A stretch of 24,000 bases of DNA from Psychrosphaera sp. (GCA_965200905.1 CBDAVN010000015.1:112332-136331), one strand, 5' to 3'. Counted from the stretch's first letter, positions 6,134 to 24,000 are shown. The notes: a model not told the origin generated them from the letters alone. Numbers and translations: made by a program.

Positions 6134-6273
6134 ACTCCTGTAAGAAAATTGGCTTGAATCACTGCTTAACCAAATACTAGAAATTAAGTCTCAAAACTAG
6201 CTAGCAGCGATTACAACTGATGCCTAGTTTGCAAAATTGACTTCGCACTTTACTCCTGCAGTCAATTTTAGAA

Positions 6274-6293
6274 ACCTGCAAGATCTAGCAGTA
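6274..6293. promoter_or_regulatory. lux-box-like 20-bp dyad (ACCTGCAAGATCTAGCAGTA) in the divergent NRPS / aminotransferase-operon promoter region
   Basis: CTGC-N8-GCAG dyad; 14 of 20 positions are self-complementary. It has the ACCTG...CAG architecture of the V. fischeri lux box (ACCTGTAGGATCGTACAGGT). It lies between start codons at 6133 (-) and 6388 (+). A -10-like TAGACT at 6314-6319 would put the dyad centre near -42.5 for the plus operon. TAAAGT (minus strand, 6247-6252) would do about the same for the NRPS operon. Confidence 0.55.
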
Positions 6294-6387
6294 TCGTATT
6301 TCACGGTTATCACTAGACTAAATCTCGATAATTTTTGGAGCACTCCTCCGAAGTTGAGTCCATTACTTTCTAAGACGGGGTCTAGCG

Positions 6388-7692
6388 ATGAACAGGGATA
6401 CACAAAAAAGCAATAACGAAACTGAATTTCACAATATAGAATCAGAGGTCAGGTATTACAGTCGTCAGTACCCAGTCGTATTTGATGGCGCCAAAGATCA
6501 CTTGCTAATAACAGACTCAGGTGAGCAATATATCGACTTCTTATCAGGAGCAGGCTCACTCAATTATGGCCACAATCCCGATAGCATCATGAAAGAAGTA
6601 ATTAGCTATTTACAAAAGTCGAAAGTACTCAATTCACTCGATCTAGATACTAGTGCCAAGCGAGCTTTTATTACTGCTTTGAACGATATTATTCTCAAAC
6701 CTCGAGCCTTAGATTACAAAATTCAGTTTACTGGCCCAACTGGAACTAATGCTATAGAAGCTGCGCTTAAGCTCGCTCGAAAAGTAACTCAACGACAAAA
6801 CATTATCGCCTTTACTAATGGTTTTCATGGCATGACTCTCGGAGCATTAGCTGCTACAGGTAGTAGTGGTAAAAGGCAGGGGGCAGGAATTGGTTTATAT
6901 GGTATTACTCATATGCCATTTGATGGATATTACGGTGAGACAATCAACACCATTGAACTTATAGAACGTCATTTACAGGATACAAGTAGTGGGTTAGAAC
7001 TCCCAGCAGCTTTTCTGGTTGAAACAGTACAAGGCGAAGGAGGCCTTAACACAGCCAGTGACGATTGGTTAAAAGCCCTGTCTCAACTAGCTAAACGCTA
7101 TAACATATTACTTATTATTGATGACATACAGGCTGGCTGTGGTCGTACAGGCAAATTCTTTAGCTTTGAAGGGGCTGGGATCAACCCAGACATCGTCTGT
7201 TTGTCAAAGTCTATCAGTGGCTGTGGGCTGCCAATGGCTATCACCTTATTAAAACCTGAACTTGATATCTGGCAGCCCGGGGAACATAACGGCACATTCC
7301 GTGGCAACAACTTAGCATTTGTTGCGGCTCGAGCAGCGCTTGAATTTTGGAACAACAACATGTTTGAAGCGCAAATTGGTAAAAAATCAGCCCTTGTGCA
7401 TGAACAATTATCAGCAGCAATAGTTGAGCTACCATCCTCTCAAGCTAAAGTTGTAGGAAAAGGGCTATTAAAAGGGGTAGAGTTTCAAGACCCCACTATA
7501 GCCACCCAAGTCATGCATCTAGCGTTTGAACAGGGACTTATCTTAGAAACTTGTGGCTCCTGTGACCAAGTTATTAAATTGATGCCTCCGATCAACATAA
7601 CAGAAAGTGCACTTAATCAAGGCCTTACCATCGCTAGAAATGCTATCACTAAAGCAATAACTCCTCTTATTGAACAAGCAGCAAGTAGTTAA
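6388..7692 (+). CDS. Diaminobutyrate--2-oxoglutarate aminotransferase family (EctB/PvdH/Dat-like class III PLP aminotransferase)
   Basis: 434 aa. The N-terminal IESEVRYYSRQYPVVF signature is typical of DABA aminotransferases. Class III aminotransferase motifs are present: GSLNYGHNP, DDIQAGCGRTG and CLSKSISG (Schiff-base Lys). Confidence 0.85.
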   Translation: MNRDTQKSNNETEFHNIESEVRYYSRQYPVVFDGAKDHLLITDSGEQYIDFLSGAGSLNYGHNPDSIMKEVISYLQKSKVLNSLDLDTSAKRAFITALNDIILKPRALDYKIQFTGPTGTNAIEAALKLARKVTQRQNIIAFTNGFHGMTLGALAATGSSGKRQGAGIGLYGITHMPFDGYYGETINTIELIERHLQDTSSGLELPAAFLVETVQGEGGLNTASDDWLKALSQLAKRYNILLIIDDIQAGCGRTGKFFSFEGAGINPDIVCLSKSISGCGLPMAITLLKPELDIWQPGEHNGTFRGNNLAFVAARAALEFWNNNMFEAQIGKKSALVHEQLSAAIVELPSSQAKVVGKGLLKGVEFQDPTIATQVMHLAFEQGLILETCGSCDQVIKLMPPINITESALNQGLTIARNAITKAITPLIEQAASS

Positions 7693-7713
7693 TAAGCAGC
7701 ATCGGAGAACAAG

Positions 7714-10002: not shown

Positions 10003-10786
10003 GTTTACTTTATCGATCTTATCAATTTTACTTATTTTGCCCGCCTCAATTTATGCTAGTGAACAAGGAGATCCAGTTAGAGGTCTGGAAATAGCTAAAG
10101 CCAGATATAAGAAATTTAATGGTTACTCAGACTACCAAGTTTCGCAAACAATGACCTTATTCAACGCAAACGGTGAAAGCACAGTATTTAAAATGCGGAG
10201 TAAGTCTTTAGCTGTAGATGATGACGGAGATAAAAGTTTATCACTGTTCGACTACCCAAGAGATAAAAAAGGTATTGTAATACTTACCCATACTCGCAGA
10301 TTTGGTGACGATGACAGTATGTTATATCTGCCAGCGTTGAAACGAGTAAAACGGATAGTCGCCAGTAATAAATCAGGACCTTATATGGGTAGTGATTTTG
10401 CCTATGAAGATTTAGGCTCAAAGGAAATAGAAAAGGCTGATTACTTTTATCTAGGGGAAGAACAAATCGACGGACACCCCACCTATAAGATGAAGCGCAT
10501 ACCAAAGTCCCCAAATAGTGGCTACAGCAAAATGTTAGTTTGGACAGATACTGAAAATTTGCGGATATTGCGGGCCGATTACTATGATCGCAAAGGTGCA
10601 TTACTGAAAACGCTAACTTACAGTGACTTTAACCTCCACGAAGAGCGCTTTTGGAGAGCGCACAAGTCAGTGATGGCTAACCACCAAACCAATACTAAAA
10701 CAGAAATTATTATTGATGATATTCAGTTTAACAATGGTTTTTATGCTCAGGAATTCGAGCGAAATGCGCTGAAGCGAGCTCGCTAA
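9995..10786 (+). CDS. Periplasmic LolA-like 'outer membrane lipoprotein-sorting' family protein
   Basis: The ORF track starts at TTG 9974. I prefer ATG 9995, which overlaps the upstream stop (ATGCTTAA) and yields a clean signal peptide MLKFTLSILSILLILPASIYA/SE. It carries the family signature MLYLPALKRVKRIVASNKSGPYMGSDFAYEDL. Confidence 0.75.
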   Translation: MLKFTLSILSILLILPASIYASEQGDPVRGLEIAKARYKKFNGYSDYQVSQTMTLFNANGESTVFKMRSKSLAVDDDGDKSLSLFDYPRDKKGIVILTHTRRFGDDDSMLYLPALKRVKRIVASNKSGPYMGSDFAYEDLGSKEIEKADYFYLGEEQIDGHPTYKMKRIPKSPNSGYSKMLVWTDTENLRILRADYYDRKGALLKTLTYSDFNLHEERFWRAHKSVMANHQTNTKTEIIIDDIQFNNGFYAQEFERNALKRAR

Positions 10787-10797
10787 AGGAAAGTCTT

Positions 10798-12159
10798 ATG
10801 GATAATTCGGCTATTTCGTCAAATAGAACGGACGAACTTTGTGACAATAGTTTATTGAAAAACCGTAACTTTATACTGCACTTTTTCGGTTCAACAATAT
10901 CAGGTTTTGGTGACGCTTTTACGCTTGTAGCGCTTCCGTGGCTTGTACTTGAAGTAACTAACAGTCCAATACATTTAGGTCTCATTATGGCTGCAGCAGG
11001 GGTACCAAGAGCAATAGTGATGCTATTAGGTGGGGCTTTAATTGACAAGGTAGGAGCAGCGGCAACTTTGCTATGGTCACGTGTGATGTTTTTTATTTTG
11101 TTGTCTGTGCTTGCCTCGCTAATTTGGCAGCAAAATCTTGAACTCTGGATGTTGTACGCTTTTTCCTTTGCTTCAGGGGTATTAGGAGCCTTTGCTCTGC
11201 CAGCTGCAGAATCACTGTTGCCTTTACTAGTAAAGCAACTGCAACTACCAAAGGCTAATGGACTGATACTTGGTGGGGAGCAGTTCGGCTACTTGATAGC
11301 ACCTGCTATATCTGGAGGAATGATCTGGTGGGTATCTAATAGTAACCAAGCAACAGGACACGAGTTAGATGGTCTGGCTCTTATCTTTGCTATAGATGCA
11401 CTAACCTTTCTATTCGCCGTTATTTCACTGCTAGCAGTGAAACTAAAGAGACAAAAAAAAGCAACTATCAACTATAGTTTTTGGAAAATGACTATAGATG
11501 GCTTCAGGCATATTAAACAGGATCAATCATTACTGGCATTCACTATATTTTTAATGTTGTTTGGATTTCTCGGCAATGGGCCATTTTTTGGTTTAATGCC
11601 ACTCTTTGCAAAGCAAAATTTTACAGATGGTTCAGCAACATTAGGAGTACTAATGTCAATTAATGGGGCTGGTGCTATTACGGGCATCTTAATTGGGAGC
11701 TTGTTGCGACCCAAGCCTAGCCAATTAGGTCCATTTCTTATGTCAGGATACTTGTTAACAGGTTTAGGTTTTGCCAGCCTTTCAGCTACTGACGGGATGT
11801 TATCGGCTTCAATTACTATATATCTCACAGGTATGGGTTGTAGTTGGTCAATGGTAGCAGGTATTAGTTGGATACAGGTAAGAGTACCAGAGACACTCTT
11901 AGGCCGAGCCATTAGTATCATAATGTTTGCTTTTCTAGGTTTAGTACCTTTATCCATAAGTTTAAATGGATTTATGGCCAACTATTTTAATGTCCAAAAC
12001 GTGATGCTGGTTTACGGTACTTTGTTAGCATTGGTCTCGGTTTTGGCACTCACTCTATCGAGTATTCGCTCTATGGGAGTAACTTCTGGCTCATCAAAAC
12101 AAACATTTCAAGGATCCGGACAACAGGAATTGCTATCAAACGAACAAGGAGTCTTATGA
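10798..12159 (+). CDS. MFS transporter (EntS/DHA3-like efflux pump)
   Basis: 453 aa with AAGGAAA upstream. About 12 predicted TM segments. The N-terminal NRNFILHFFGSTISGFGDAFTLVALPWLVLEVTNSP is typical of the enterobactin-exporter-like MFS subfamily. Confidence 0.8.
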   Translation: MDNSAISSNRTDELCDNSLLKNRNFILHFFGSTISGFGDAFTLVALPWLVLEVTNSPIHLGLIMAAAGVPRAIVMLLGGALIDKVGAAATLLWSRVMFFILLSVLASLIWQQNLELWMLYAFSFASGVLGAFALPAAESLLPLLVKQLQLPKANGLILGGEQFGYLIAPAISGGMIWWVSNSNQATGHELDGLALIFAIDALTFLFAVISLLAVKLKRQKKATINYSFWKMTIDGFRHIKQDQSLLAFTIFLMLFGFLGNGPFFGLMPLFAKQNFTDGSATLGVLMSINGAGAITGILIGSLLRPKPSQLGPFLMSGYLLTGLGFASLSATDGMLSASITIYLTGMGCSWSMVAGISWIQVRVPETLLGRAISIIMFAFLGLVPLSISLNGFMANYFNVQNVMLVYGTLLALVSVLALTLSSIRSMGVTSGSSKQTFQGSGQQELLSNEQGVL

Positions 12160-13040
12160 TGGAGTACGTAATAGATAAAAAACAGCAGATCACTGAGGTT
12201 GAATTTCGCAACCACTATCTAGATAAAAAGCCACTACTGCTAAAAGGTTTCACTACTGAGTCTAGGTGTATACAAAAGTGGTCGCTAGATTATTTTAGCC
12301 AGCACTTTGCTGGCCTGCAAATAGCAACCAAAGAATTTATGCCAGAGCAAATTAAAGTACACCACACTACTATGGGAGAATATATAACGTCACTTCGTAA
12401 CTACTTTGCAAAAATGGAGCAAGGTAAAGCATGCTCTCTCCCACCTTATTGTCATGATATACCTATTTTTAATATAGCCCCAGCACTCATAAAAGATGTT
12501 GAAGGTTTTCCAAGCAATTGGTTACCCAAATGGTACCAAACGAATTGGTGGCTTTTTTGCCAGTTTTTTATGTCTGTCGAAGGCAGCGTTACCCCATTAC
12601 ACTTCGATACTTTACGCACTCATAATCTATTTTTTCAGGTGCAAGGACGCAAACGCTTTACTCTCATCCCGTGGGAAAAGAGTAAAGCGTGTGATCGCAG
12701 AGGGTGGCGTTGGTTTAACGCAGATCCAGAAGCTTCGGAACATAATAACCCTCACAATTTTGATAGTGTTCCACGAGTTATCGTTGACGTTGAACCTGGC
12801 GACATACTCTATATGCCAGCCGGAACACTTCACCATGTCAGAAGTCTCGATTTCTGTATCTCGTTCAATATAGATTTTCACACCCGAGCAAGTTTGCTCC
12901 AAACTGTCCCCGCTATAGCAAATGGTATGCCGCTGGAAAATATTTACTACAACTTACTAAGTGCACTAGGGGTCGTATGTGGTTTGCCTCAAAAGTTGCT
13001 GTTTCCACTTTATAGAAAATATCTAAATTACATCTCTTAA
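12156..13040 (+). CDS. JmjC/cupin-8 type Fe(II)/2-oxoglutarate-dependent oxygenase
   Basis: 294 aa. The start ATG overlaps the MFS stop (ATGA), with AAGGAG upstream. An HxD...H facial triad is visible (TPLHFDTLRTHN ... PAGTLHHVRS), and FFQVQGRKRFTLIP is typical of the JmjC double-stranded beta-helix. Confidence 0.7.
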   Translation: MMEYVIDKKQQITEVEFRNHYLDKKPLLLKGFTTESRCIQKWSLDYFSQHFAGLQIATKEFMPEQIKVHHTTMGEYITSLRNYFAKMEQGKACSLPPYCHDIPIFNIAPALIKDVEGFPSNWLPKWYQTNWWLFCQFFMSVEGSVTPLHFDTLRTHNLFFQVQGRKRFTLIPWEKSKACDRRGWRWFNADPEASEHNNPHNFDSVPRVIVDVEPGDILYMPAGTLHHVRSLDFCISFNIDFHTRASLLQTVPAIANGMPLENIYYNLLSALGVVCGLPQKLLFPLYRKYLNYIS

Positions 13041-13061
13041 AAAATATGTGCGATTCGACCA

Positions 13062-14315
13062 ATGTTGTCCTGTCGCACTATGAAATTAAACTTTAACCAT
13101 GCATTTAATATTATGAAAAATATTCCCCCCTTTAACTTTATTATACTAATCAACTTGATCTTTATTCCTTTAATAAGTAAAGCAAGTACAAATGACTTTT
13201 CAGGTTCAATAGAAGCGCAAAGTTTTATTTTTACTGAATCTCCCCGTTTGGCTGCTCAACCAAGTACTCAATTATCCACTATTGCCGAGCTAGAGTGGTA
13301 CCAAGATTGGAACTCGGGTAGCAGCAGCCTTACATTTAAACCTTATCTAAGGGTTGATAATCGAGATAGCGAACGTAACTTGCTTGATATAAGAGAGCTA
13401 GCTTGGAGATATACACAAAAAAACTGGGAGCTTGGTTTTGGTATATATAAGGTATTTTGGGGGCAAACAGAATCACAACATAGAGTCGATATTATTAACC
13501 AGACAGACACCCTCGCGAGTGTAGATGGTGAAGAAAAGCTCGGGCAACCCATGGTACAACTGTCTTTTTACCGAGATTGGGGCGCACTAGAGTTTTATTG
13601 GCTACCTATATTTAGACCACAACAATTTGCCTCAGAAAAAAGTCGATTTATTCCCGAACTTAGCATCACAAAAGAAAACTCCTACCAATCAGCAAGGAAA
13701 GATAAAGCAATGGATTGGGCTATTCGATGGAGCCAGATGTTAGGAGATCTTGAGCTAGGTCTATCTCACTTCTACGGCACTACAAGGTCTCCTCAGCTAA
13801 ATAAGATTAATCAAGATAACGAAGTGCTATATCAGCCTTACTATAATCGCATTGAACAAAGTGGATTAGATCTGCTCTACTTATGGAATGAGTGGGTTTG
13901 GAAATTAGAGGCAATTCACAGAAGTTTTAAAGGTGGTGCATTTACGGCGGTAACAACAGGGTTCGAATATACTCAAATAGACTTGTTCCAGTCAGCCGTA
14001 GATCTAGGCTGGGTAGTCGAATATTCGACTAACTCCAACCCCAACTTATCAGGCGACATTGCTCAGAATGATATTTTTATTGGTAACCGACTTACATTTA
14101 ATGATGCGGCCGATAGTGAACTGCTGTTCGGCATTAACCAAGATCTAGGTGACTCTTCTTCATACTCAGTAATATTAGAGGGCAGTACCCGCTTAAGTGG
14201 TAGCCTTAGAGCAACATTAAACCTTTATCTATTCAATGCCAGTGACCCTCTAGACCCAATGCATTACTTGGATAAGGATGACTTTATGCAATTAAATCTA
14301 GAGTACTTTTTCTGA
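13062..14315 (+). CDS. Secreted protein, probable outer-membrane beta-barrel (family not recognised)
   Basis: 417 aa. In-frame ATGs at 13080 and 13113 are alternative starts; 13113 gives a canonical signal peptide MKNIPPFNFIILINLIFIPLISKA/ST. It has alternating amphipathic strands and a C-terminal aromatic end ...LNLEYFF, typical of BAM substrates. Confidence 0.6.
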   Translation: MLSCRTMKLNFNHAFNIMKNIPPFNFIILINLIFIPLISKASTNDFSGSIEAQSFIFTESPRLAAQPSTQLSTIAELEWYQDWNSGSSSLTFKPYLRVDNRDSERNLLDIRELAWRYTQKNWELGFGIYKVFWGQTESQHRVDIINQTDTLASVDGEEKLGQPMVQLSFYRDWGALEFYWLPIFRPQQFASEKSRFIPELSITKENSYQSARKDKAMDWAIRWSQMLGDLELGLSHFYGTTRSPQLNKINQDNEVLYQPYYNRIEQSGLDLLYLWNEWVWKLEAIHRSFKGGAFTAVTTGFEYTQIDLFQSAVDLGWVVEYSTNSNPNLSGDIAQNDIFIGNRLTFNDAADSELLFGINQDLGDSSSYSVILEGSTRLSGSLRATLNLYLFNASDPLDPMHYLDKDDFMQLNLEYFF

Positions 14316-15065
14316 ACACACTCTGCTGCTTGTTAGTAGTTGTGAAACTATATATTCTTGGTCATCGTCAATAAAAAAGTGATCACCATTAAAAGTTTTA
14401 ATAGAAGTTTGACCTGTCGTTAATTCGAACCATTCACGCATTTCTTTATCAGATATACAGTCCTCATTACCAAGCCATGCATCAATAGGACAGTTCAGTA
14501 ATTCACAGTGGCTAAACTGGTACTGTTCATTTAGTCGAAAATCAGCACGTATTATAGGCATAAAAAATGCCATCAACTCGTCACTTTCATATATTCTCGC
14601 AGGAGTGCCATTTAACTTTTTCAGCTCAGCTAAAAAAAGATTATCAGGCAGCGACGAAATCGCTGTAGAAGTCAATGGTAAATTAGGCGGCCGTTTAGCT
14701 GACACTATCAACTTTCTGGGACTCTGTAGCCTAGCTCCCTGAATTCTCATAGCTAGCTCATAGCTAATTAACGCTCCTAAGCTATGGCCAAAAAAAACAT
14801 AAGGAATATCCAGCACACTTTGAATATCTTTATACAGAGCTTCAATAAGTTGTGACATTTCTGAACATAAAGGTTCAACAAAACGTCGCTCTCTGCCAGG
14901 GTAACATATAGCAGTTAGCTCAATATCTTTAGGTAGAAAATTAGACCAATTTCTAAATACTGCTGGACTACCTCCTGCATATGGAAAACAGAATATTCTT
15001 AGCTTCGCATCAGGATTCGGATTAAAAGTATCTAACCAGATTGAACTACCGTAATACTTTGACAT
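14298..15065 (-). CDS. Type II (editing) thioesterase of NRPS/PKS clusters
   Basis: 255 aa. It has FCFPYAGGS near the N-terminus, the GHSLGA nucleophile elbow and a C-terminal GDHFF (His of the triad). Its 3' end overlaps the convergent 13062-14315 gene by 18 bp. Confidence 0.9.
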   Translation of the reverse strand: MSKYYGSSIWLDTFNPNPDAKLRIFCFPYAGGSPAVFRNWSNFLPKDIELTAICYPGRERRFVEPLCSEMSQLIEALYKDIQSVLDIPYVFFGHSLGALISYELAMRIQGARLQSPRKLIVSAKRPPNLPLTSTAISSLPDNLFLAELKKLNGTPARIYESDELMAFFMPIIRADFRLNEQYQFSHCELLNCPIDAWLGNEDCISDKEMREWFELTTGQTSIKTFNGDHFFIDDDQEYIVSQLLTSSRVCSEKVL

Positions 15066-15117
15066 ACTATTGCTCAGTTTCGAAAGGTTCAGAGATTTTA
15101 ATAGATTAGTTCATATG

Positions 15118-15145
15118 GTACACCCGTCACATTAGACAGGTGTAC
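15118..15145. promoter_or_regulatory. 28-bp inverted repeat (GTACACCCGTC-N6-GACAGGTGTAC) containing a lux-box-like core (minus strand ACCTGTCTAATGTGACGGGT, 15122-15141) upstream of the thioesterase gene
   Basis: The 11-bp arms have one mismatch. The core matches the lux-box ends ACCTGT/ACrGGT. It sits 57 bp upstream of the thioesterase ATG (15065) and 18 nt downstream of the luxR-family stop. It could therefore also fold as a hairpin without a U-tract at the end of the luxR transcript. Confidence 0.45.
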
Positions 15146-15163
15146 TTATAAAAATAACGTTAG

Positions 15164-15904
15164 TTATAAAGAAGGCTTAACTAAGCCTTGCATAATTGCT
15201 TTAGCAACAGCATGTTGCCGGTTAGATGCGTTAAGCTTATTCATAACACTACTCAAATGAAACACAGCTGTACGTTCTGAAATATTCAAAATGGTAGATA
15301 TTTCCCAGGCTGTCTTCCCCTCACAAGCCCAAAAAATACACTCTTTTTCTCGAGATGACAGTTTAACTTCTTGTTTAGCAAAAGACTCTATATTTATACG
15401 TAGGTAGTTGTTGAGTAGTCTCGTTGCAAAGCTTTGTGCACTAGCCAAGCGATTTGTAAAACCATCTGCAAACACATTACTGTCTGACACAACTAAACTC
15501 AAAGTAGCAATCTCACCACTAGGTGCCTTCATTGGTATTGAGATACCATTTACTAACCCATATTGTTTGGCTTTTTCCATTACTTTGAGATGTTCAGCAC
15601 TACTGTAACCTTCCGACTGAATCAGTTGATCCCATCGAATAGGTACCGTATTTTCGAAGCAATAGTTCACCACGGGGTCATTTTTCTGTAGGTTTTCTGA
15701 AAAGTAGATATCAGTCCAATCCTTTGGATAGTTACTTAATACACCAAGTTTTGGTGATGTTAGCGTTTCAGTATCACAAACACCAAAAAGAAAAAAATCA
15801 GCCCCCAATAGTTTGCATAGTTTTTCACAAATATCCTTGAGCTGTTTTTTATCTACAGCGGTATCAAGATCATCAATTAGCCGCACAAATTCAATATTAT
15901 TCAT
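15164..15904 (-). CDS. luxR: LuxR-family AHL-responsive transcriptional regulator (autoinducer-binding domain + C-terminal HTH)
   Basis: 246 aa with GAGGGAA upstream. Conserved AHL-pocket residues are visible (KDWTDIYF, NDPVV, IRW, GLVNGISIP). The C-terminal LuxR-type HTH reads LSSREKECIFWACEGKTAWEISTILNISERTAVFHLSSVMNKLNASNRQHAV. Confidence 0.9.
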   Translation of the reverse strand: MNNIEFVRLIDDLDTAVDKKQLKDICEKLCKLLGADFFLFGVCDTETLTSPKLGVLSNYPKDWTDIYFSENLQKNDPVVNYCFENTVPIRWDQLIQSEGYSSAEHLKVMEKAKQYGLVNGISIPMKAPSGEIATLSLVVSDSNVFADGFTNRLASAQSFATRLLNNYLRINIESFAKQEVKLSSREKECIFWACEGKTAWEISTILNISERTAVFHLSSVMNKLNASNRQHAVAKAIMQGLVKPSL

Positions 15905-16373
15905 GGTTCCCTCAGACGTTTATTCTTATTGTCATTTCCTTTGCCACATTAAACTTCTCAGACAAACTATTAGCCTTGTATGCTATGTTGAATAAGTTAC
16001 AGTCAAGATAAGATCAAAACAATACTTTTTGTTAACCAAATGAAAATAAAGTTAATTATGGACCACCAAAAATTAAAATATTGCCATTAGAGCTATTTCC
16101 ATTCCCTAGCAAATTTAACGTGAAATAGTATTTCAATATAAATTTATTCCAAAATATTGACTTCCGCCTTAACCAACTATAAATAAAGGGATAGGGCTGT
16201 TCAAACACTTAACATTAGCAATACTCCATCGTGCGAGTTCCAATGTTCTCTTTTTTATGGTTGATTCCTACAACCATCAAAACTTAATTTCTGGGCGAAC
16301 TATTATACTTCTGGGTTGATTTGTATCCATTGAAAAAAACAAGCGATAAAAGATACTGATAACATAAATAAAC

Positions 16374-16388
16374 AAGCCATGACGGCTT
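16374..16388 (-). terminator. Weak hairpin (AAGCC-N5-GGCTT) followed on the minus strand by a T-rich tract; possible terminator of the 307-aa gene
   Basis: Seen by eye about 100 nt downstream of the stop at 16488. The stem is only 5 bp (plus 3 bp after a bulge), and the T-tract is interrupted (TTATTTATGTT). Confidence 0.25.
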
Positions 16389-16487
16389 TGTATTTAGCAT
16401 AGCTAGAAGGTAGACAGCTAATCTTTTTAGCTTTGACAAGCTCCGATACCGTAACAAGTTGCAGCACTAATCCTCATTAGTAAATGA

Positions 16488-17378
16488 TTAAGGCTTTGAT
16501 TGTAGGTGTACTATTAACCCTTGGGTTACCGTTTTTTGATAATTTAAATGCCAGTTTCCCACACGGTCAACAAAAGCAGAAAGCTCGCTGATAACTGCCA
16601 AATCATTTGATTTAGGTAACGCCAATACAATAGCTTCATCAATCAGTTTGTTTTTGATACAAGTAAATAGAAAGTCAATGTCGGTAAATAATGAAACTAC
16701 AGCCTTCTGCTTAGAACCTGTATATTTTTGTAACTTCTGTAAACTGGAAATTGAAGCAATTTCATTGCGTTCAATGACATCATTCATAATATTAAAGCAG
16801 GGAGAGAAATATAAAATATCAGCTTGATTAAAAGTATAAAATATAGCAGAAGACTCAGCTAACGGCTTTAGGGCACTCTCAATGAAACCAAAACTGCTCT
16901 GCATAAGAGAAATTGTGTTGGCATCGAAATTTCCCTGCCAAACCGATATACCAATAGTCCAAGGTCTCCCTCTGAGCTTCAGTGATAGTGCACCAGATAC
17001 CAACCCTTTAGCATGAGGCCTTGACTGTGGAAAAAAGCTGATCTGCCCAGAGTAACTTGAGCTCCAATCGCGAAATATTGGGTCACGGAGATAGTCTGGC
17101 AATTTGTGTGCAATATGAAGTTGTTCACAATTTGATCGAGTAATCATATCCAGCAGCATTTTTGTATTGCAGTTTTCGATAATTGGTTCGCAAGAACAGT
17201 AAAGATAGGCAATTTTCTCACTGTGTTGATTTATCAAATAACTGCTGCGATGTTTTTCGAATCCCGTCATACCAAATTGACTGCCAAGTATGTGGCCATT
17301 TTGATCAACTGCAGTAAATGCAAAGCCAGCACGTAAAGAAATAGAGCAGGCAAGTGACAAAGTATAATCGGATAACAT
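16488..17378 (-). CDS. Hypothetical protein between the luxR- and luxI-family genes (no recognisable motif)
   Basis: The ORF track gives 307 aa from a TTG at 17411. The first ATG is at 17378 (MLSDYTL..., 296 aa). It is a long uninterrupted ORF in an otherwise AT-rich region and has no signal peptide or TM segments. I could assign no family. Confidence 0.6.
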   Translation of the reverse strand: MLSDYTLSLACSISLRAGFAFTAVDQNGHILGSQFGMTGFEKHRSSYLINQHSEKIAYLYCSCEPIIENCNTKMLLDMITRSNCEQLHIAHKLPDYLRDPIFRDWSSSYSGQISFFPQSRPHAKGLVSGALSLKLRGRPWTIGISVWQGNFDANTISLMQSSFGFIESALKPLAESSAIFYTFNQADILYFSPCFNIMNDVIERNEIASISSLQKLQKYTGSKQKAVVSLFTDIDFLFTCIKNKLIDEAIVLALPKSNDLAVISELSAFVDRVGNWHLNYQKTVTQGLIVHLQSKP

Positions 17379-17497
17379 TTTTGACAATGGTTGCGACAAC
17401 GGAGGAAACAATTTACTACAAGCCTAAGCCCGTTTGCGCAAACACAGGCAATAACTAAAATGGCCAGCAAAACTATCAAATCAAGACAACAGAAGAA

Positions 17498-17517
17498 ACC
17501 TGTAACTTCTTACAGTT
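17498..17517. promoter_or_regulatory. lux-box-like dyad ACCTGTAACTTCTTACAGTT (CTGTAA-N4-TTACAG)
   Basis: It has 6-bp perfect arms, and 14 of 20 positions are self-complementary. It lies in the 247-bp divergent region between the 307-aa gene and the luxI-family gene. Its position suits a minus-strand promoter: GATAGT -10-like at 17472-17477 puts the box centre at about -42. Confidence 0.55.
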
Positions 17518-17576
17518 ACCATAAAAATAAAATTTAAGTGATTGTTATCAAAATAAAAAATAAGAAAATAGAGACA

Positions 17577-17596
17577 TACCGCAAGATCTGACAGGT
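17577..17596. promoter_or_regulatory. Second, less symmetric lux-box-like site TACCGCAAGATCTGACAGGT upstream of the luxI-family gene
   Basis: The right half ACAGGT is a perfect lux-box half-site. It shares the 9-mer GCAAGATCT with the box at 6274-6293. The centre is about 72 bp upstream of the luxI ATG, and a -10-like TAGTCT at 17619-17624 would put it near -44. The left half-site is poor. Confidence 0.4.
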
Positions 17597-17658
17597 AACC
17601 ATAGCCTTATTTCCTCACTAGTCTTTTTGAAACAAACTTACGACACGGACAGTGAGAA

Positions 17659-18237
17659 ATGAATAAAGTATATTTTGCGACGTCAAACCAACAAAACCAC
17701 GATTTAATTGAACAGATATATAGCTTACGGCATCAGACGTTTATAAAGAGGCTTGGTTGGGATATTACATCTGATAAGGGATTGGAGCAGGATAAATTTG
17801 ACTTTCTTGATCCTGTTCATATCGCAGTTACCGATACAAAAGACATAGTAAAAGGATGCTGGCGTGCCCTGCCTACGACTGGAGACTACATGTTGAAATC
17901 AGTCTTCCCACAATTATTACAAGGTGAAGATGCTCCCCAACAGGAGGATATTTGGGAGATAAGCAGACTCGCAGTACAAAAGTACTCTTCAAAGCCAGAA
18001 CATGGTTACATTAGTAACATATCTCTCGACCTAGTTCGTTCCTTTTATGACTTTGCTCAACTACATAACATTAGTTCATTTGTAACTGTCACTACAGTCG
18101 CTTGCGAACGAATGCTGAGACAATTAAACGTTACTTTGCGCAGAATGGGACAAGGCAAAGCACTGTGGATAGGCAAAGAATTATCAGTGGCTATTAAGAT
18201 CGAGGTAAATGAATCGTTAAAGATTTACAGAAACTGA
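17659..18237 (+). CDS. luxI: Acyl-homoserine-lactone synthase (LuxI family)
   Basis: 192 aa. It carries LuxI-family conserved blocks: LRHQTFIKRLGWDI, EQDKFD, CWRALPT and WEISRLAV. Confidence 0.9.
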   Translation: MNKVYFATSNQQNHDLIEQIYSLRHQTFIKRLGWDITSDKGLEQDKFDFLDPVHIAVTDTKDIVKGCWRALPTTGDYMLKSVFPQLLQGEDAPQQEDIWEISRLAVQKYSSKPEHGYISNISLDLVRSFYDFAQLHNISSFVTVTTVACERMLRQLNVTLRRMGQGKALWIGKELSVAIKIEVNESLKIYRN

Positions 18238-18330
18238 TATTACTCTAGCCAATGTAATACTGTGAACTAAGCTTTAGTACTACCTAATGTTTAACTAAGA
18301 ACACGCTTAAGCTTTTTTTGTTAATAATAA

Positions 18331-18350
18331 ATATATCAATATTGATATAT
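18331..18350. repeat. Perfect 20-bp palindrome ATATATCAATATTGATATAT
   Basis: Verified by reverse-complementing by eye. It lies about 95 bp downstream of the luxI-family stop in non-coding DNA. Confidence 0.7.
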
Positions 18351-18551
18351 CAGTTAATTACAAATTATGAAGAGAGAACTTTTCCTAGGATAATAAAGCT
18401 TAGTAATCAGATGAAATATGCCCAGCCTTAATGCCAAAATGAAGAAAGCCGCATACCGCTACCACAGAGTGTTATTACTAATTAATCATCAGCAAACTAG
18501 ACATTCACCCAGAATGCATAAACTCCCCCCATACTAGACAGTTAACATATG

Positions 18552-19064
18552 GAAAACATTTAGACATCCCCATGAATGCTAGTATTGCGATAAAATACAT
18601 GGATGTTTTTACAATCACTATGAGGTTAGGAGGCGGAACATAAATGTCTGGAACATTTATCAACAGCTTCAGCTGGCCGCTTGCGGTGAAATACATGGAC
18701 GTATTTCATAATCGAACAGAGCGAAGCTCAGTGAGGTTGCCTTAGTCTCCATTTTACTCCCCCAACGAAAGTACAGGGAATACAGATCTACACAGAAAAA
18801 CTTAAAATAAGAAATTAACTTTGAGAATAAAATATTTGGGGAATTAAATGGTGCCTCGAGGCGGACAAATATTTCTGGAAAATATTTGGACATCCGTACG
18901 GATGGTCGCGAAGCGATAAACGACATGGACGTTGTTTACAATCTATAATGAGAGACGCGGAGAGGCATCTTTACTTCCCATAATTCGCGTACAACAAAAA
19001 CGGTCAGAACAATATTTAAACTTATTTTCAACTATGGAAATTTTAGACTAATTTAGGAAGTAAA
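18552..19064. repeat. Degenerate tandem repeat region: three diverged copies of a unit that begins (tRNA orientation) with the 3' end of tRNA-Phe
   Basis: Unit 18857-19073 aligns by eye with 18628-18856: gaggcggacaaatatttctggaaaatattt vs gaggcggaacataaatgtctggaacattta; ..gcgataaacgacatggacgttgtttacaatc vs ..gcggtgaaatacatggacgtatttcataatc; both end in ..taaatggtgcctc. A shorter third copy lies at about 18552-18627. The conserved roughly 30-bp cores are at 18587-18616, 18683-18713 and 18913-18943. Confidence 0.7.
18849..18865 (-). repeat. 17-nt copy of the tRNA-Phe 3' end (TCCGCCTCGAGGCACCA on the minus strand); att-type direct repeat
   Basis: It is identical to the last 17 nt of the longer fragment at 19065-19110, and the flanking AAA is also shared. 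No tRNA body is present upstream of it. Confidence 0.7.
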
Positions 19065-19110
19065 TGGTGCCTCGAGGCGGAATCGAACCACCGACACGGG
19101 GATTTTCAAT
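19065..19110 (-). pseudogene. Truncated tRNA-Phe (3' 46 nt: anticodon loop GAA through CCA); likely island-distal att direct repeat
   Basis: The minus strand reads ATTGAAAATCCCCGTGTCGGTGGTTCGATTCCGCCTCGAGGCACCA. The first 18 nt and the T-loop are identical to E. coli tRNA-Phe (..GGGGATTGAAAATCCCCGTGTC..GGTTCGATTCC..CACCA). The sequence 5' of it (gggagta) does not continue the anticodon stem, D-arm or acceptor stem. Confidence 0.8.
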
Positions 19111-19479
19111 TACTCCCGATAACAGTAAAAGTATGCATTATCTGTGTGTATTTTCGAATGAACGTTGAATAGCGTACCGTTTCTAGCCCTACGTGACTTT
19201 TCAATAGGTCGTATTAGAGTTGATAAATTTACAAAATATCCCAAGCGTTTTAGTGATACAAAGTTGACTCCTAACTGCACTACTTTCAACCCTGCTGGAA
19301 TATCTCCATAAATTGAAATTACATCCATCACTGTTCAAACAGCTTCTAAAATTCCTAATATTTCATTTTAGGAATAATTAGGAATGAAAGGTTTAGTTTA
19401 CTCGGGATTGTGCTTGACGTGCTGACTCAGCCGGTTACATTAATAAATGTGCTCCTTTTTATTTTTTAAGGAGTAAACC

Positions 19480-19677
19480 ATGATTTTATTAGCTGCGTGT
19501 TTTGTTTTTGCTTTCCTTGCCATTTTTGTTCAAATATTCATCAAAAGAACTAAACATAAAGAGCTGTTGCTCAAAGGCTTTCTTCGTATGAGTTTTATTT
19601 CATTATGTGCCTTTATATTATTAAAGGCACAATTTATGAGTGTCATTCTCGATTTAGCTAAAATTTTAACTCGCTAA
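19480..19677 (+). CDS. Small hydrophobic protein (65 aa, two predicted TM helices)
   Basis: A strong AAGGAG lies 6 nt before the ATG. A plausible sigma70 promoter is present (TTGACG 19414-19419, 16-nt spacer, TACATT). Sequence is MILLAACFVFAFLAIFVQIFI..SFISLCAFILLKAQFMSVIL. No homology was recognised. Confidence 0.5.
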   Translation: MILLAACFVFAFLAIFVQIFIKRTKHKELLLKGFLRMSFISLCAFILLKAQFMSVILDLAKILTR

Positions 19678-19704
19678 TTTCCTTTTATAAGCTCTGAAGC
19701 TACT

Positions 19705-20451
19705 TTACGTTCCAGGAATCAATAAAGGATGTGGGAAAAATCGGTTCATCAACAAATCTACTCGGCGCTTTAATTTTACATATTTAGAATAAACGCTAGG
19801 ATTACCATAATTTTCCTTTAAGAGTTCATCAACATACCTTGAAATTTGATTTAATTTTTCAACACTTTCATGGGATATAAAATTCATTTCGTCTACGCGA
19901 GAATGTTGCTCAAGGGCATCCCCTATTCTTGTTAAACAATCAACTCCCCAAAAACCATCTTGGTAATCATGATAAGCCATTGATGGTAAAGAATTTGAAG
20001 CACTTCGTAAGTGAGTCACGACATCTCGACTAAAAACAACTCTAGGCCAGTCAGCATACTTACTTTCTAGCTGGTAAGCCTCAATCATTGCTTTCCCGAA
20101 AACATTACTTTCTTTATGAAATAGTTCTCCGTATGAGATCCCCCCTCTCAAGCTTATTCTGTGTTCCAAAAATACATCTTCTAGCATTTTAACTGTTGCA
20201 GCTACCAACATATTCAAAGATTTAACAACATCCTCTTCCTTTGCTTCTATAGAAAAAACAATACAATCGCTGAAAGTAGTAGCTTTAGGCTCATATCCTA
20301 TTTCTCTTAATAGCTGTTTGTTATTCATTAGCTCTTGTCGTACTGAGTTAACGATATTTAGCACGAGGTGCCCTTTTTCACTTAGAACCAAATTGCTAAA
20401 GCCTAGAATATCTAAAAATAAACAAAGGTTTTTGGTGTACTTTGTATCCAT
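19705..20451 (-). CDS. Minimal class III nucleotidyl-cyclase-fold (cyclase-homology/GGDEF-palm-like) protein
   Basis: 248 aa. The motif order matches class III cyclases. LCLFLDILGFSNL corresponds to FxDIxGFT (first metal Asp, D14). TTFSDCIVFSI corresponds to KxIGDxxMxxF (second Asp, D62). ISLRGGISYGELF corresponds to lRiGihtGpv. NVFGKAMIEAYQLES corresponds to dvxGxxVNxAaRlES. The start lies 7 nt after the upstream gene's stop. Confidence 0.65.
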   Translation of the reverse strand: MDTKYTKNLCLFLDILGFSNLVLSEKGHLVLNIVNSVRQELMNNKQLLREIGYEPKATTFSDCIVFSIEAKEEDVVKSLNMLVAATVKMLEDVFLEHRISLRGGISYGELFHKESNVFGKAMIEAYQLESKYADWPRVVFSRDVVTHLRSASNSLPSMAYHDYQDGFWGVDCLTRIGDALEQHSRVDEMNFISHESVEKLNQISRYVDELLKENYGNPSVYSKYVKLKRRVDLLMNRFFPHPLLIPGT

Positions 20452-20458
20452 CTATTAA

Positions 20459-21166
20459 CTACTTCTTATATCTTTCAAATATTTTATTAATGATCACAGA
20501 AACAATTTCATAATCACCAACAGCGCCACCATGTAAACAGTTGGAGCCATGAGCCATTATATTTCTAGATCCCGGTAATGTTTCGCACAATACATCTAAA
20601 TAATTGTAATCATATTGAACGCCAGCATAATCTATCTCTGCTTCATCCCACTCGTATGATGATATGTTCTCTTCACTCATTTTTTTTGAAACGTAAAAGC
20701 GATATTCCCTTTCAGCTTTTCGAGCTCTTCCGTCTCGCCATACTTTGAAATCTTCATTCCTGATCAAGTTATGTTCAGAAATATATGCTAAGTTCAGCTT
20801 TAATCCCCTTGAAAATCGCCCAGTTCCTTTCGGTAACTGCTTATTCTTATTTTTGCGATAATTCTCTAGCTCTACAATACCAATGCACTCACGAATTGCT
20901 TGCTCAAGCGTTACAAACAATTGATGTTGTGCTACAGGAAAAAACCTATAAACATAAAACGCGTGTAGGAATAAATTTCGAGCTGTATCAAATTGAATAA
21001 CTAACTCTTCTGGGACATGAGAACCCAACTCATACTTGGCTATCGCTTGATGAAATTGCTCAATCCCAGTGTCACCAAATTCAATATTGCGCACATCGGG
21101 TAACAAAATATTTGACGGTGTTCTAAAGGCCTCAGCTGGAAACTCATCAATGTTTAATTTATTCAT
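20459..21166 (-). CDS. Stand-alone HEPN-like protein (Rx4H motif)
   Basis: The ORF track starts at TTG 21199. I prefer ATG 21166 (MNKLNIDEF, GGAA 6 nt upstream; 235 aa). The motif LPGSRNIMAHGSN (R-N-x3-H) sits about 35 residues from the C-terminus. It is preceded by long helices (VPEELVIQFDTARNLFLHAFYVYRFFPVAQHQLFVTLEQAIRE), as in HEPN/DUF4145/Abi-type four-helix bundles. I saw no CARF, SAVED or cNMP-binding motif. Confidence 0.55.
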   Translation of the reverse strand: MNKLNIDEFPAEAFRTPSNILLPDVRNIEFGDTGIEQFHQAIAKYELGSHVPEELVIQFDTARNLFLHAFYVYRFFPVAQHQLFVTLEQAIRECIGIVELENYRKNKNKQLPKGTGRFSRGLKLNLAYISEHNLIRNEDFKVWRDGRARKAEREYRFYVSKKMSEENISSYEWDEAEIDYAGVQYDYNYLDVLCETLPGSRNIMAHGSNCLHGGAVGDYEIVSVIINKIFERYKK

Positions 21167-21306
21167 TATTATTTCCATTCCTTGAGTTCGAAGAGCCAAA
21201 TCAATGTTGCTCTACTCTCAATTCGATTGACATTAACCATATCGATTCTCTTATAAAGGATTAATATCTAATACAAATCCTCACTCCTCTCGTACAATAA
21301 GGCTCT

Positions 21307-23052
21307 TCAATCTCGCTCAGGCGGCTTTTGTTTACATGAATATCTGCTGTAAAGAGTAGGTATAAAACCTAAACTTAAATCTGAATACTTCAATGATTTT
21401 CTTAACTTATCATGCGTCAGTTTAAGCTCATATTTAGCCATTAAAGGTAAACTTTCCAGTGTTGGGGGAGATTTCCTTTGATCATATAAAACCCACATTT
21501 TAACATTGTAATCTTGCCCTGAAACATCTGAGATATCTTCTTTTATATGCTCAAGAACATCGTCTCTTTTGCTGTGCTTTGATTGTTGAACAAAGTCTCG
21601 AATATCCTCTAGAAAAACATCATCTGATAAAAAAAACTCACAATAAAATCGAGCTTGAGAGAACAAGTAATTGATAGAATCTGAATAACCATTTTTTTTA
21701 ACATGGATAATATTGCCTTTTTTATCATCAGACATTTCAAAAATATCACAGAACTCTTTGTTTTTATTACCAGTACCTATTCTTAACTTTGCTTGATCGA
21801 ATAAGATCGCATTATCATTCAAAGCACAATATTTGGTATTAAAAAGCTCTTCTCTATTTTGCTTTCTACTTGTGCAAAATATATCAAGCCCATGATATCT
21901 CGTATCTACGGCTTCAACCTTAATTTGATTTTCAACAAAATCTGATACTTGCTTATAAAAGTCGGGATCAACTTTTCTCCACTCTCCAGAAGTTAATATA
22001 TAACAGTCATCTTTTAACTCTATTTCAGCAACTAAACAGTCATATATACACCATTTACGATGATGTAAAATCTGACCTTCTTCATGAGAGTATGCATAAA
22101 CATATTTTTTAGTTATATCTGCAAGTTTAATATCGGAGATATTTCGCTTTACTTCTTCTTTTAAATCTTGCACTCGAATGTGGGAGATAATGTTATTTTC
22201 TTTTTTAGGATAATTTGTATAGGTGAAGCTAAACTCATCATCAGGTATGAATTCAGGAATAGATAAGTGTATTTTTGCATAACTTTCGCTTCGAATTAGC
22301 TTTAATAATTCTTCGTCTAGTTCAGAAACTTTCTCTTCGGGTACAGCTGTTAGATTAGGGTAATTAGGAAACCACTTTTTATAATCCTCGCTTCTATAAG
22401 CAAGCAAACTATTAGAAATAAAATCTAACAGCTTATCCCACGTAAATTTATCAGAACCAAGCGCTTTCACAGTAAGACAATCCTTTCCTTGTAAAGTAAT
22501 ATTTGAGTTTGAATTTAAGTGAGCAGATATATATTGAAGCAACTCAGTTTCTGACATCCCTAAATCGAATACTTCAGAAGGCCGACTAAGTTGTCGATCT
22601 ATCATTTGCGAAGTCGAAGCTCGTATAGCACTCTTTGCTTGTCTGACTTCTTCATTTCCACAGAGGTTCATTGCTACTTTGATGCCAAAATCAGACTCCA
22701 TTTGTTTTTTCTTAATCCAAGAACTTCCTCTAGTGCCAAATGCAGCCGCGCAAACTCTGGAGCCTAAATTTATTAATAGTAGTCCACTGCCCCTTTCAGA
22801 AGATGTATTAAAGTTAACTTCTTCTTCACTTGATAGTGACTCATTAACAAAATCCAACCATGGTGGATTATCATGAGAGTTAATGAAAACCTTCTGACAA
22901 AAAAATTTAATATTAAACTGGTTCACAGAAAAGTGTCTGATCTTAAAAGATCCAGTTTCGACACTTGGGATTTTTTCCACATCTACAACATCATCAAAAC
23001 CTTTACCATCTTTTGAAAGGTATATAGTTACCTTACCTAGACAAAATTCCAC
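21307..23052 (-). CDS. TIGR04141/DUF6119-like 'sporadically distributed' protein with C-terminal PD-(D/E)xK-like motif
   Basis: 581 aa with a GTG start at 23052 and GGAAG 7 nt upstream. My recollection of the family features: short N-terminal beta-rich region (KVTIYLSK..F.D), AAAFGTRGSSWI...DFGIKVAMN block, central CYILTSGEWRKVDPDFYKQV block, and C-terminal EFCDIFEMS...GNIIHVKK...INYLFSQARF (D..(E/H)xK nuclease-like followed by a conserved helix). Confidence 0.6.
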   Translation of the reverse strand: MEFCLGKVTIYLSKDGKGFDDVVDVEKIPSVETGSFKIRHFSVNQFNIKFFCQKVFINSHDNPPWLDFVNESLSSEEEVNFNTSSERGSGLLLINLGSRVCAAAFGTRGSSWIKKKQMESDFGIKVAMNLCGNEEVRQAKSAIRASTSQMIDRQLSRPSEVFDLGMSETELLQYISAHLNSNSNITLQGKDCLTVKALGSDKFTWDKLLDFISNSLLAYRSEDYKKWFPNYPNLTAVPEEKVSELDEELLKLIRSESYAKIHLSIPEFIPDDEFSFTYTNYPKKENNIISHIRVQDLKEEVKRNISDIKLADITKKYVYAYSHEEGQILHHRKWCIYDCLVAEIELKDDCYILTSGEWRKVDPDFYKQVSDFVENQIKVEAVDTRYHGLDIFCTSRKQNREELFNTKYCALNDNAILFDQAKLRIGTGNKNKEFCDIFEMSDDKKGNIIHVKKNGYSDSINYLFSQARFYCEFFLSDDVFLEDIRDFVQQSKHSKRDDVLEHIKEDISDVSGQDYNVKMWVLYDQRKSPPTLESLPLMAKYELKLTHDKLRKSLKYSDLSLGFIPTLYSRYSCKQKPPERD

Positions 23053-23314
23053 AATGCACTTCCAAAGTTAACTAAAAATCACTTTACCACTAATAAAAAG
23101 AAAAATTTAAGAATAGCTATGAAGCTTTTTATAGCTCAACTAATTATCGCTTTCTGATCTAATTGTTAGATAAAGATACATTTTTTAATTATTCATCAAA
23201 CTCAAGCTCTTATTCAAATTTAAACGACAAACTAGTTGATTAGGCTCAATATATGTGCAAAATAAATCACTTTACTACAGAGCGTACTAGGCTATTTAAG
23301 ATCGATTAAAATTT

Positions 23315-23785
23315 ATGAGTAGTATCCCTCATCTGTCTAACTTATATAACGATGGTTGGTGGGGATTCATTGTTATTGTAATAATGATTATTCTTTCAGG
23401 AGTAATGTTATCGAATAGCTTTCAAATCCCGCAATCAACGAATCAGAAACTAGTCGTTAACTTAAAAATACTTAAGCTACAAGCAACTGGTAGTGAAGTC
23501 GTGCTTGGTCTGGTTATATATCTGCTCGTAACTTTTTTAACAGGTTTATTCGGTGGCAAAGAACTGACTACATTTATAAATTGCCAATTTGGCCTTACAT
23601 TCTCTCAGTTCAATTCAATATGTATTTTAGGTGGAGTGTTATCTTTAATTGTAAGTGCAGTTGTTTTTTTTATTAAAAACCTACCTGTAATTAGAGACAG
23701 CAAGAACCTCAACAACCAAGAACTCTATGAAGCTCAATTAAAAAAATTATCAGCCTCCAGATCCCAAGGAGAAAAACGTGAATAA
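23315..23785 (+). CDS. Membrane protein, about 3 TM helices with a charged C-terminal tail
   Basis: 156 aa. Hydrophobic segments are WWGFIVIVIMIILSGVMLS, VVLGLVIYLLVTFLTGLFGG and ICILGGVLSLIVSAVVFFI. The RBS is weak. The stop overlaps the start of the downstream ATPase gene. Confidence 0.5.
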   Translation: MSSIPHLSNLYNDGWWGFIVIVIMIILSGVMLSNSFQIPQSTNQKLVVNLKILKLQATGSEVVLGLVIYLLVTFLTGLFGGKELTTFINCQFGLTFSQFNSICILGGVLSLIVSAVVFFIKNLPVIRDSKNLNNQELYEAQLKKLSASRSQGEKRE

Positions 23786-24000
23786 AGGTACTTCTTGTCA
23801 AACTATGGCTATAGTCAGTGGTAAAGGGGGCAGTGGTAAAACAATGCTGACAGCCACTTTAGCAAAGATTTTGGATAGTCAGGGTTACTCTACATTGCTT
23901 GTGGATGCAGATTTTGGAACTGCAGGACTAACTTATTTTTTGGGCTTAAATGAAGTAAATAATATCAGTGTTGGTCTAACTAATATTTTTTCCAGTGACG
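23778..24000 (+). CDS. MinD/ParA-type (deviant Walker A) P-loop ATPase, N-terminal fragment; continues past the right edge
   Basis: Absent from the ORF track because it runs off the window. GTG at 23778 has AAGGAG 6 nt upstream and overlaps the previous gene by 8 nt (in-frame ATG at 23805 as alternative). Translation: VNKGTSCQTMAIVSGKGGSGKTMLTATLAKILDSQGYSTLLVDADFGTAGLTYFLGLNE.., i.e. KGGxGKT plus the hhhDaD Walker A' of the MinD/ParA/FlhG clade. Confidence 0.75.
   Translation, partial: MNKGTSCQTMAIVSGKGGSGKTMLTATLAKILDSQGYSTLLVDADFGTAGLTYFLGLNEVNNISVGLTNIFSSD

Follow-up and report, generated by a model that had tools for sequence, protein, structure and literature searches.

A 24.4-kb mobile island in a tRNA-Phe gene of Psychrosphaera sp., with phage-type replication genes and exchangeable cargo

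Genomic islands that insert into tRNA genes share a simple and recognisable layout. One end holds an intact tRNA gene, the other carries a displaced 3' fragment of that gene in matching orientation, and a tyrosine integrase is encoded in between (Islander, PMC4383910). Among phage satellites, the PICMIs have been described as small, gene-poor elements (PMC10803314). Here, these systems are compared with an island of a marine bacterium, Psychrosphaera sp. The window analysed is a stretch of 24,000 nucleotides (nt) (GCA_965200905.1 CBDAVN010000015.1:112332-136331), that is, C15:112332-136331 in a genome of 45 contigs and 4.75 Mb. At its right end, the window takes in the initial 4.9 kb of a mobile island of 24.4 kb that is inserted in a tRNA-Phe gene. 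Features within the window are given in window positions, and those beyond it in coordinates of contig C15. An earlier reading of the window, made from the sequence alone (hereafter the sequence-only reading), had proposed an island spanning 19111 to beyond 24000. We hold with high confidence that positions 19111-24000 are the outer end of a phage-derived integrative element, inserted by its own integrase at a 60-bp tRNA-Phe site.

Island ends, integrase and empty site

Positions 19065-19110, on the minus strand, are the last 46 nt of tRNA-Phe(GAA), and are identical at all 46 positions to the three tRNA-Phe genes, which lie on the same contig. The fragment starts at position 31, where the anticodon loop has its 5' edge, and ends with CCA. 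No 5' half of tRNA-Phe accompanies it: ARAGORN detects no tRNA in the window, and Rfam detects none in 17000-24000. The sequence-only reading had noticed this truncated tRNA, and it is real. Beyond the three genes, the fragment is the sole 25-nt tRNA-Phe 3' end in the 4.75-Mb assembly, which excludes a chance origin. At 17-25 nt, the tRNA-Phe 3' ends in the assembly comprise the fragment, the three genes and a 17-nt scrap at 18849-18865.

The fragment is part of a longer direct repeat that bounds the island. The left copy, attR (19051-19110), consists of the 46-nt tRNA part and 14 nt past CCA (19051-19064). It matches C15 155805-155864 in the same orientation, 24.4 kb away, with one mismatch (59/60). 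This right copy, attL, forms the 3' end of an intact tRNA-Phe(GAA) at C15 c[155819-155894] (window-equivalent 43488-43563), on the same strand as the fragment (ARAGORN; Rfam 69 bits). The 14-nt extension is common only to the flank of this first tRNA-Phe copy, and the other two copies match the tRNA part alone. The intact gene is the first of a Phe-Thr-Phe-Thr-Phe cluster, which is followed by yggX (Iron_traffic) and mutY. Between the repeats, the bounded interior measures 24,363 bp: its left 4.9 kb lie in the window (19111-24000), and the rest runs to C15 155804 (window-equivalent 43473), as the proposed extent beyond 24000 had anticipated. Internal att scars, which would mark the 24 kb as a tandem of two islands, were absent at both 17 and 25 nt.

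Within the bounded segment, a tyrosine integrase of 354 amino acids (aa) is encoded at C15 151705-152769 (PF00589, 3e-29; PHROG 1, 3e-62). Its arginine (in G-x-R-x-S-E), H-x-x-R, histidine and tyrosine (in R-Y-A-H) align with the equivalent residues of XerA and the HP1 integrase. We take these R, H-x-x-R, H and Y positions to be the catalytic residues of tyrosine recombinases, and judging by the alignment they appear to be intact. An intact tRNA-Phe and an integrase had been predicted at higher coordinates, and both are there, the tRNA 24.4 kb to the right and the integrase inside the island. The expectation that the integrase would adjoin the tRNA did not hold, as it lies 3.0 kb from the intact gene, behind a two-gene cargo slot.

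The site without an island can be seen in a relative, represented by two metagenome scaffolds (L051 and L054). In these scaffolds, mutY, yggX and a single tRNA-Phe are joined directly to a homologue of window 18631-18865. The last 17 nt of this tRNA-Phe and its downstream flank are 90-92% identical over 235 nt to 18631-18865. In the window, the corresponding minus-strand scrap (18849-18865) is an exact 17-nt match ending in CCA, followed by the native downstream flank at 18631-18848; scrap and flank are 92% identical over 36 nt to C15 155801-155835. The native tRNA end and its flank therefore lie at the scrap, and everything from 18866 to the intact tRNA has been added: a 200-nt repeat copy, the 46-nt fragment and the island. 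The right flanks of the two scaffolds are 85-86% identical to this contig; with a flank identity of 85-88%, they come from a relative and not from the same strain, and DNA further out differs.

The island is also a clear compositional outlier. Its interior has a G+C (GC) content of 0.360, against 0.4085 for the genome (z = -5.3), which is below all 644 genome windows of equal size. The portion at 19111-24000 has a GC content of 0.339 (z = -4.55), and 0.1% of 947 equal-size genome windows are as low. By tetranucleotide distance, the 5-kb bin that holds most of this portion (C15 132332-137331) falls at the 99.6th percentile. At the 24-kb scale, the GC step is 0.0375, a value reached by 1% of pairs, and the step at the right-hand boundary is 0.066.

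This arrangement is best explained by recombination, through the island's own integrase, between a 60-bp attP core and the terminal tRNA-Phe(GAA) gene of the cluster beside yggX-mutY, at the 3' end of that gene. In sequence, the attP core would have equalled the final 46 nt of tRNA-Phe together with 14 nt of flank. The island-borne copy would now complete the intact tRNA (attL), and the displaced chromosomal 3' part would be the fragment at 19065-19110 (attR). The element may still be able to excise, and a helicase-polymerase pair of phage origin, described below, would let the excised circle replicate on its own.

A recurring backbone with exchangeable cargo

From attR to attL, the island encodes a 65-aa open reading frame (ORF), a pair of 248-aa and 246-aa proteins, a DUF6119/TIGR04141 protein, a 156-aa protein, a ParA-like ATPase, several small ORFs, RadC, DUF6641 and a 62-aa protein. 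These are followed by a 1022-aa protein, a 530-aa STAND-like NTPase, a DNA polymerase, a DUF5906 helicase, proteins of 148, 184, 308 and 63 aa, the integrase, and proteins of 222 and 542 aa. The conserved backbone consists of the integrase, the 63-aa gene divergent from it (C15 151328-151519), three small genes, the helicase, the polymerase, the 62-aa gene, DUF6641 (C15 140049-140531) and RadC (C15 139618-140046).

The same backbone recurs in the same order on four other, marine contigs (L042, L044, L045 and L056), where the integrases are 68-98%, the helicases 53-97% and the polymerases 37-87% identical. Two of these backbones (L042 and L056) adjoin yggX/mutY and tRNA-Phe/Thr and have other cargo, for example Mrr, ORC/CDC6-like proteins with a PRTase, and PhoD. 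The sequence-only reading had named the tRNA-Phe association in related strains as a check. The association does recur, both in these two organisms and in a congener (G008), in which the 248-aa/246-aa pair lies in a tRNA-Phe-bounded island.

Cargo turnover is visible in a sister element (L044), whose integrase is 98%, helicase 96.5% and polymerase 87% identical to those of this island. Amid otherwise 87-92% identical DNA, the cargo differs. The sister element has SIR2+HerA where this island has about 1.1 kb holding the 308-aa gene, and it has 125 nt in place of the 4.9-kb cassette that encodes the 530-aa and 1022-aa proteins. Three slots for exchangeable cargo may be discerned: one between the integrase and attL, one after the polymerase, and one at the outer end, which holds the 248-aa/246-aa pair, DUF6119 and the ParA-like gene.

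The two replication genes are adjacent. The polymerase is a divergent family-A DNA polymerase of 549 aa (C15 145797-147446; L006:9798-11447), and the helicase is a P4/D5-type protein of 495 aa (C15 147418-148905; DUF5906, 2e-14), which matches TIGR01613 at 3e-15, under the curated cut-off (55.9 vs 108.7 bits). Both genes, adjacent and in the same order, also occur at 34-37% identity on a contig with P22-type portal and terminase genes (L057); the replication module therefore comes from a phage. Identity to solved and phage polymerases is at most 26%, which sets this polymerase far apart from all of them; its motifs A and B look conserved.

Relatives of the polymerase are rare. At 1e-20, the polymerase has no match in 300 other genomes of the order; at 1e-30, the helicase has none in 400 other genomes of the family, and it has no relative among 72,556 plasmids. 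Phage matches are at most 26% identical, and neither the helicase nor the polymerase family has a relative in IMG/VR. Pfam, searched at E values up to 5, gives nothing credible for the 63-, 62-, 308-, 184- and 148-aa proteins, and one backbone position of about 290 aa is so divergent (14-51% identity) that its structure could not be predicted reliably. In the open-access literature, no paper on this backbone was found, and no relevant paper discusses DUF6641 or DUF6119.

Integrases that are 68-72% identical to this one are found in Colwellia, Thalassotalea, Pseudocolwellia and Psychrobium. Their islands begin at the intact tRNA-Thr(UGU) of the equivalent cluster and end 15-24 kb away in a tRNA-Thr 3' fragment of 45-47 nt, with a second fragment further on in some. 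Whether made of tRNA-Phe or of tRNA-Thr, the repeats begin on the 5' side of the anticodon loop, so the integrase lineage has kept its crossover position and switched between neighbouring tRNA genes. An identity block that starts in the anticodon loop reportedly marks one of the classic crossover sublocations. On one of the backbone contigs, a 47-nt tRNA-Thr 3' fragment (L045:79-125) lies without an intact tRNA near the contig end, 0.5 kb from an integrase-adjacent cargo gene; it could be the attP or a tandem junction of a related element.

The cargo within the window begins with the 65-aa ORF at the island's outer end (19480-19677, plus strand), which is also called as a gene on a twin contig (L026). 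Next is the 248-aa protein (19705-20451, minus strand), for which a class III nucleotidyl-cyclase fold is supported by an AlphaFold2 model (pLDDT 86): its top 50 Foldseek matches in the PDB are all class III adenylyl or guanylyl cyclases, at E values of about 1e-5. The residues of an F-x-D-x-x-G-F-S pattern and an S-D pair, and with them the metal-binding Asp motifs, are invariant across 25 homologues. In Colwellia (L058-L060), a homologue with this fold adjoins a 972-aa STAND NTPase and an N6 methyltransferase, among restriction-modification genes; its partner genes there (121, 435 and 531 aa) differ from the 246-aa protein.

The 246-aa protein (20459-21199, minus strand) is predicted to be all-helical (model pLDDT 85) and may contain a HEPN domain, as R212-N213-x-x-x-H217 is invariant in 21 homologues. 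A HEPN fold was sought by structural comparison and set aside, because the best Foldseek matches (Csm6', Csx1-Crn2 and HepT) were all non-significant, with E values above 1. The remaining window cargo comprises a 581-aa protein of the 'sporadically distributed' DUF6119/TIGR04141 family (21307-23052, minus strand; PF19614 9e-100, TIGR04141 1e-73), a 156-aa protein with no Pfam or PADLOC match (23315-23785, plus strand), and a ParA/MinD-type ATPase of 346 aa. The ATPase gene overlaps the end of the 156-aa gene, starting at 23778 on the plus strand and continuing past 24000 to window-equivalent 24818 (CbiA 2e-12, AAA_31 5e-11, ParA 4e-10). Beyond the window, cargo is encoded at C15 141006-144074 (1022 aa), 144095-145687 (the STAND-like NTPase) and 152822-155233 (222 and 542 aa, between the integrase and attL).

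The sequence-only reading had described the genes to the right of the fragment as sporadic or defence-type. The first term fits the DUF6119/TIGR04141 family, and the second receives some support from the cyclase fold and its helical R-N-x-x-x-H neighbour, but no window gene matches a PADLOC defence model. 'Defence-type' is therefore a plausible label by context rather than a demonstrated one, and the cargo may serve to defend the host against phages.

History of the site and alternative readings

The site downstream of the tRNA-Phe cluster appears to be hypervariable, judging by the genomes compared: in five congeners, the genes found there are all different and have no syntenic counterpart here. 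In G008, mutY, yggX and a Phe-Thr-Phe cluster are followed by a 12.2-kb island, whose integrase is unrelated and lies directly against the tRNA, and then by a 51-nt tRNA-Phe fragment. Next comes an 11.5-kb island without an integrase, which ends at a 26-nt tRNA-Phe fragment. In common with the island described here, this distal island has the cyclase-fold/helical pair (82% and 95% identical to the 248-aa and 246-aa proteins, respectively), two short internal segments and the 430-nt non-coding stretch next to attL (87-88% DNA identity). The locus (G008:C1:2531881-2556130; L048, L049) holds two stacked islands, of which the distal one keeps both end regions of the island described here; it has the look of a derivative formed by deletion, which could still be mobilised in trans. 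In another congener (G003), a 75-aa integrase remnant, 96% identical, lies 1.1 kb downstream of the tRNA-Phe cluster. Elsewhere, in Thalassotalea castellviae (L035) and congener G012 (L021), duplicate copies of whole tRNA-Phe/Thr units stand 7-8 kb from one another and enclose foreign DNA, so some insertions at the cluster are flanked by complete tRNA genes and not by fragments.

To the left of the island lie genes for an aminotransferase, MMPL and MFS proteins, a thioesterase, LuxR, an unknown protein and LuxI. The sequence-only reading had called this DNA a biosynthetic cluster, a description that holds with the addition of quorum sensing. Positions 1-19064 have no DNA match in five congeners beyond short repeats at 18630-18945, and the left flank is therefore not conserved core either. 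Its tetranucleotide usage is atypical, and GC drops to 0.34-0.37 in the luxR/luxI region. The flank may have been acquired earlier at this hot spot, but it is bounded by no att scar. At 18630-18945 there are copies of a 75-110-nt intergenic repeat with the core ...CGTCCATGT-TTTATCGC... On contigs C13 and C40 this repeat is also found beside tRNA-Ser clusters, and in congeners G002, G003, G008 and G012 it lies downstream of tRNA-Phe; it looks like a genus-wide small repeat tied to tRNA arrays.

Several observations weigh against an integrative element inserted by its own integrase. The 17-nt scrap lies about 200 nt to the left of the fragment, which indicates a site history more complex than one insertion. 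An exact empty site from the same strain was not found: downstream of tRNA-Phe, DNA beyond about 400 nt differs in every relative examined, an exact look-up of LuxI returned only the twin contig, where the island is also present, and a 25-mer from the left flank had no match in JGI metagenomes. None of the genes was recognised as an excisionase, and the conserved gene of 63 aa that is divergent from the integrase lacks a family match. In Pol I, motif C is H-D-E; here it is H-D-A in all 12 aligned members of a small clade, so polymerase activity is not assured. Finally, the local GC step of 0.028 at 19.1 kb is not significant, as it is equalled or exceeded by 10.9% of adjacent genome window pairs. 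The step is not significant alone because the luxR/luxI flank is likewise AT-rich, with a GC content of 0.367 in the 4.9 kb to the left of the fragment. The earlier claim that DNA becomes more AT-rich to the right of the fragment is thus upheld for the island, whose whole length is the lowest-GC 24-kb segment, but not as a local boundary; the change at about 19.1 kb would not convince by itself.

Three other explanations can be set against that of an integrative element inserted by its own integrase. The island could be a phage satellite: an element integrated at tRNA-Phe and induced by a helper phage, which replicates itself, is packaged in helper capsids and carries anti-phage genes in variable slots. 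Its 24-kb size, tRNA target, integrase and P4-family helicase domain fit that general layout, the replication pair is common to the podophage-like contig, and the variable slots of sister elements hold SIR2+HerA, Mrr and restriction-modification genes. Marine virion-encapsidated elements (VEIMEs) are described as having primase/helicase genes in common between modules, with DNA polymerase genes in some of module 6 (PMC9618062). Island proteins were scanned with Pfam (ORFs of at least 80 aa), and ten ORFs were scanned with PHROGs, in which matches were confined to the integrase, the polymerase and the helicase. Neither scan detected a small terminase, a capsid protein or a gene of the Sid/Psu/Delta, Cpm or AlpA type, and Pfam detected no portal, terminase or tail family and no relaxase or type IV secretion family. 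With no known helper phage, and with the absence of relatives from IMG/VR noted above, a satellite is a rather unlikely explanation.

A decayed prophage would account for the same genes differently: a temperate podovirus at tRNA-Phe would have kept its integrase and its replication genes while losing those for structure and lysis, and later insertions would have followed. The homology of the helicase-polymerase pair to that of the phage-like contig, the membership of the integrase in PHROG 1, the largest phage integrase family, and the lack of any remaining structural gene are all compatible with such a history. Random decay, however, would not preserve both gene order and intact frames in a backbone free of structural genes, as is seen in at least five independent contigs, at 37-98% protein identity and in at least two chromosomal contexts. 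This recurrence, together with the absence of phage structural genes within 10 kb in those contigs, makes a decayed prophage improbable. More improbable still, to the point of being scarcely credible, is that the fragment is debris from duplication or deletion in the Phe/Thr array and that the intervening DNA was never site-specifically integrated. The number of tRNA copies does vary (one Phe in L051, Phe-Thr-Phe in G008 and five genes here), and the fragment has on its immediate left the 17-nt scrap as well as multi-copy intergenic repeats. Array debris would not be expected to start exactly at the anticodon loop or to share a 14-nt non-tRNA flank only at the two island ends, around DNA that is a compositional outlier and encodes an intact integrase. 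In four other genera, moreover, homologous integrases are likewise bounded by tRNA-Thr fragments, and these have the same length.

Insertion by the island's own integrase is the best reading. A wider proposal, which we put forward tentatively and regard as possible rather than probable, is that the island belongs to a lineage, as yet undescribed, of integrative elements that derive from phages and replicate themselves. Such a lineage would combine an integrase, a D5/P4-type helicase and a family-A polymerase with H-D-A, would be specialised on the tRNA-Phe/tRNA-Thr cluster beside mutY-yggX in marine Alteromonadales, and would switch targets and carry interchangeable anti-phage cassettes; it might even be a new kind of phage satellite with its own polymerase.

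Relation to known systems

For annotation, the value of this locus is that the limits of the island are fixed, in what is a textbook case. The cyclase-fold/helical pair, DUF6119, the ParA-like gene and the STAND-like cassette are mobile cargo and not core genes, and stacked insertions in Psychrosphaera have a hot spot downstream of the tRNA-Phe cluster that lies beside mutY. Less ordinary is the integrase-borne backbone with a phage-type helicase and a divergent family-A polymerase, which recurs with different defence-like cargo. Close relatives use tRNA-Thr in place of tRNA-Phe. Should this backbone turn out to be a satellite or an island that replicates autonomously, marine mobile elements would gain a polymerase-bearing type. 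The backbone would then also provide a natural system for the study of integrase retargeting between neighbouring tRNA genes.

Compared with Islander-type islands (PMC4383910), this island shares the layout of tRNA, fragment and integrase, falls in the usual size range and has an atypical composition. All of the features that define such islands are present, namely an intact tRNA, a 3' fragment in the same orientation, an integrase, an empty site (in the relative represented by L051/L054) and a distinct composition. It differs in that the integrase is 3 kb from the tRNA and not adjacent to it, and in that the repeat extends 14 nt past the tRNA; otherwise, there is no difference in principle.

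Temperate marine podophages of the L057 type have the same adjacent DUF5906 helicase and family-A polymerase, in the same order. The island lacks their portal, terminase, capsid and tail genes, whereas L057 has no integrase within the 20 kb read. At 24 kb, the island is much larger than PICMIs. With P4-like, PICI/PICMI and VEIME satellites (PMC10803314, PMC9618062) it shares an integrase and a P4/D5-family helicase domain, a tRNA site, small size and, in sister elements, anti-phage slots. It differs from them by its own family-A polymerase and by the lack of recognisable capsid-redirecting, terminase and AlpA genes.

The cargo invites a comparison of its own. As in Pycsar and CBASS, the pair at 19705-21199 places a small cyclase-fold protein beside a candidate effector, and homologues of the cyclase lie near restriction-modification and STAND NTPase genes. 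The pair differs from those systems in that neither protein matches a PADLOC model, and the HEPN assignment of the partner consists of one motif and non-significant fold matches. Taken as a whole, the island is an ordinary kind of element, which its phage-derived DNA-copying genes and swappable cargo make slightly unusual.

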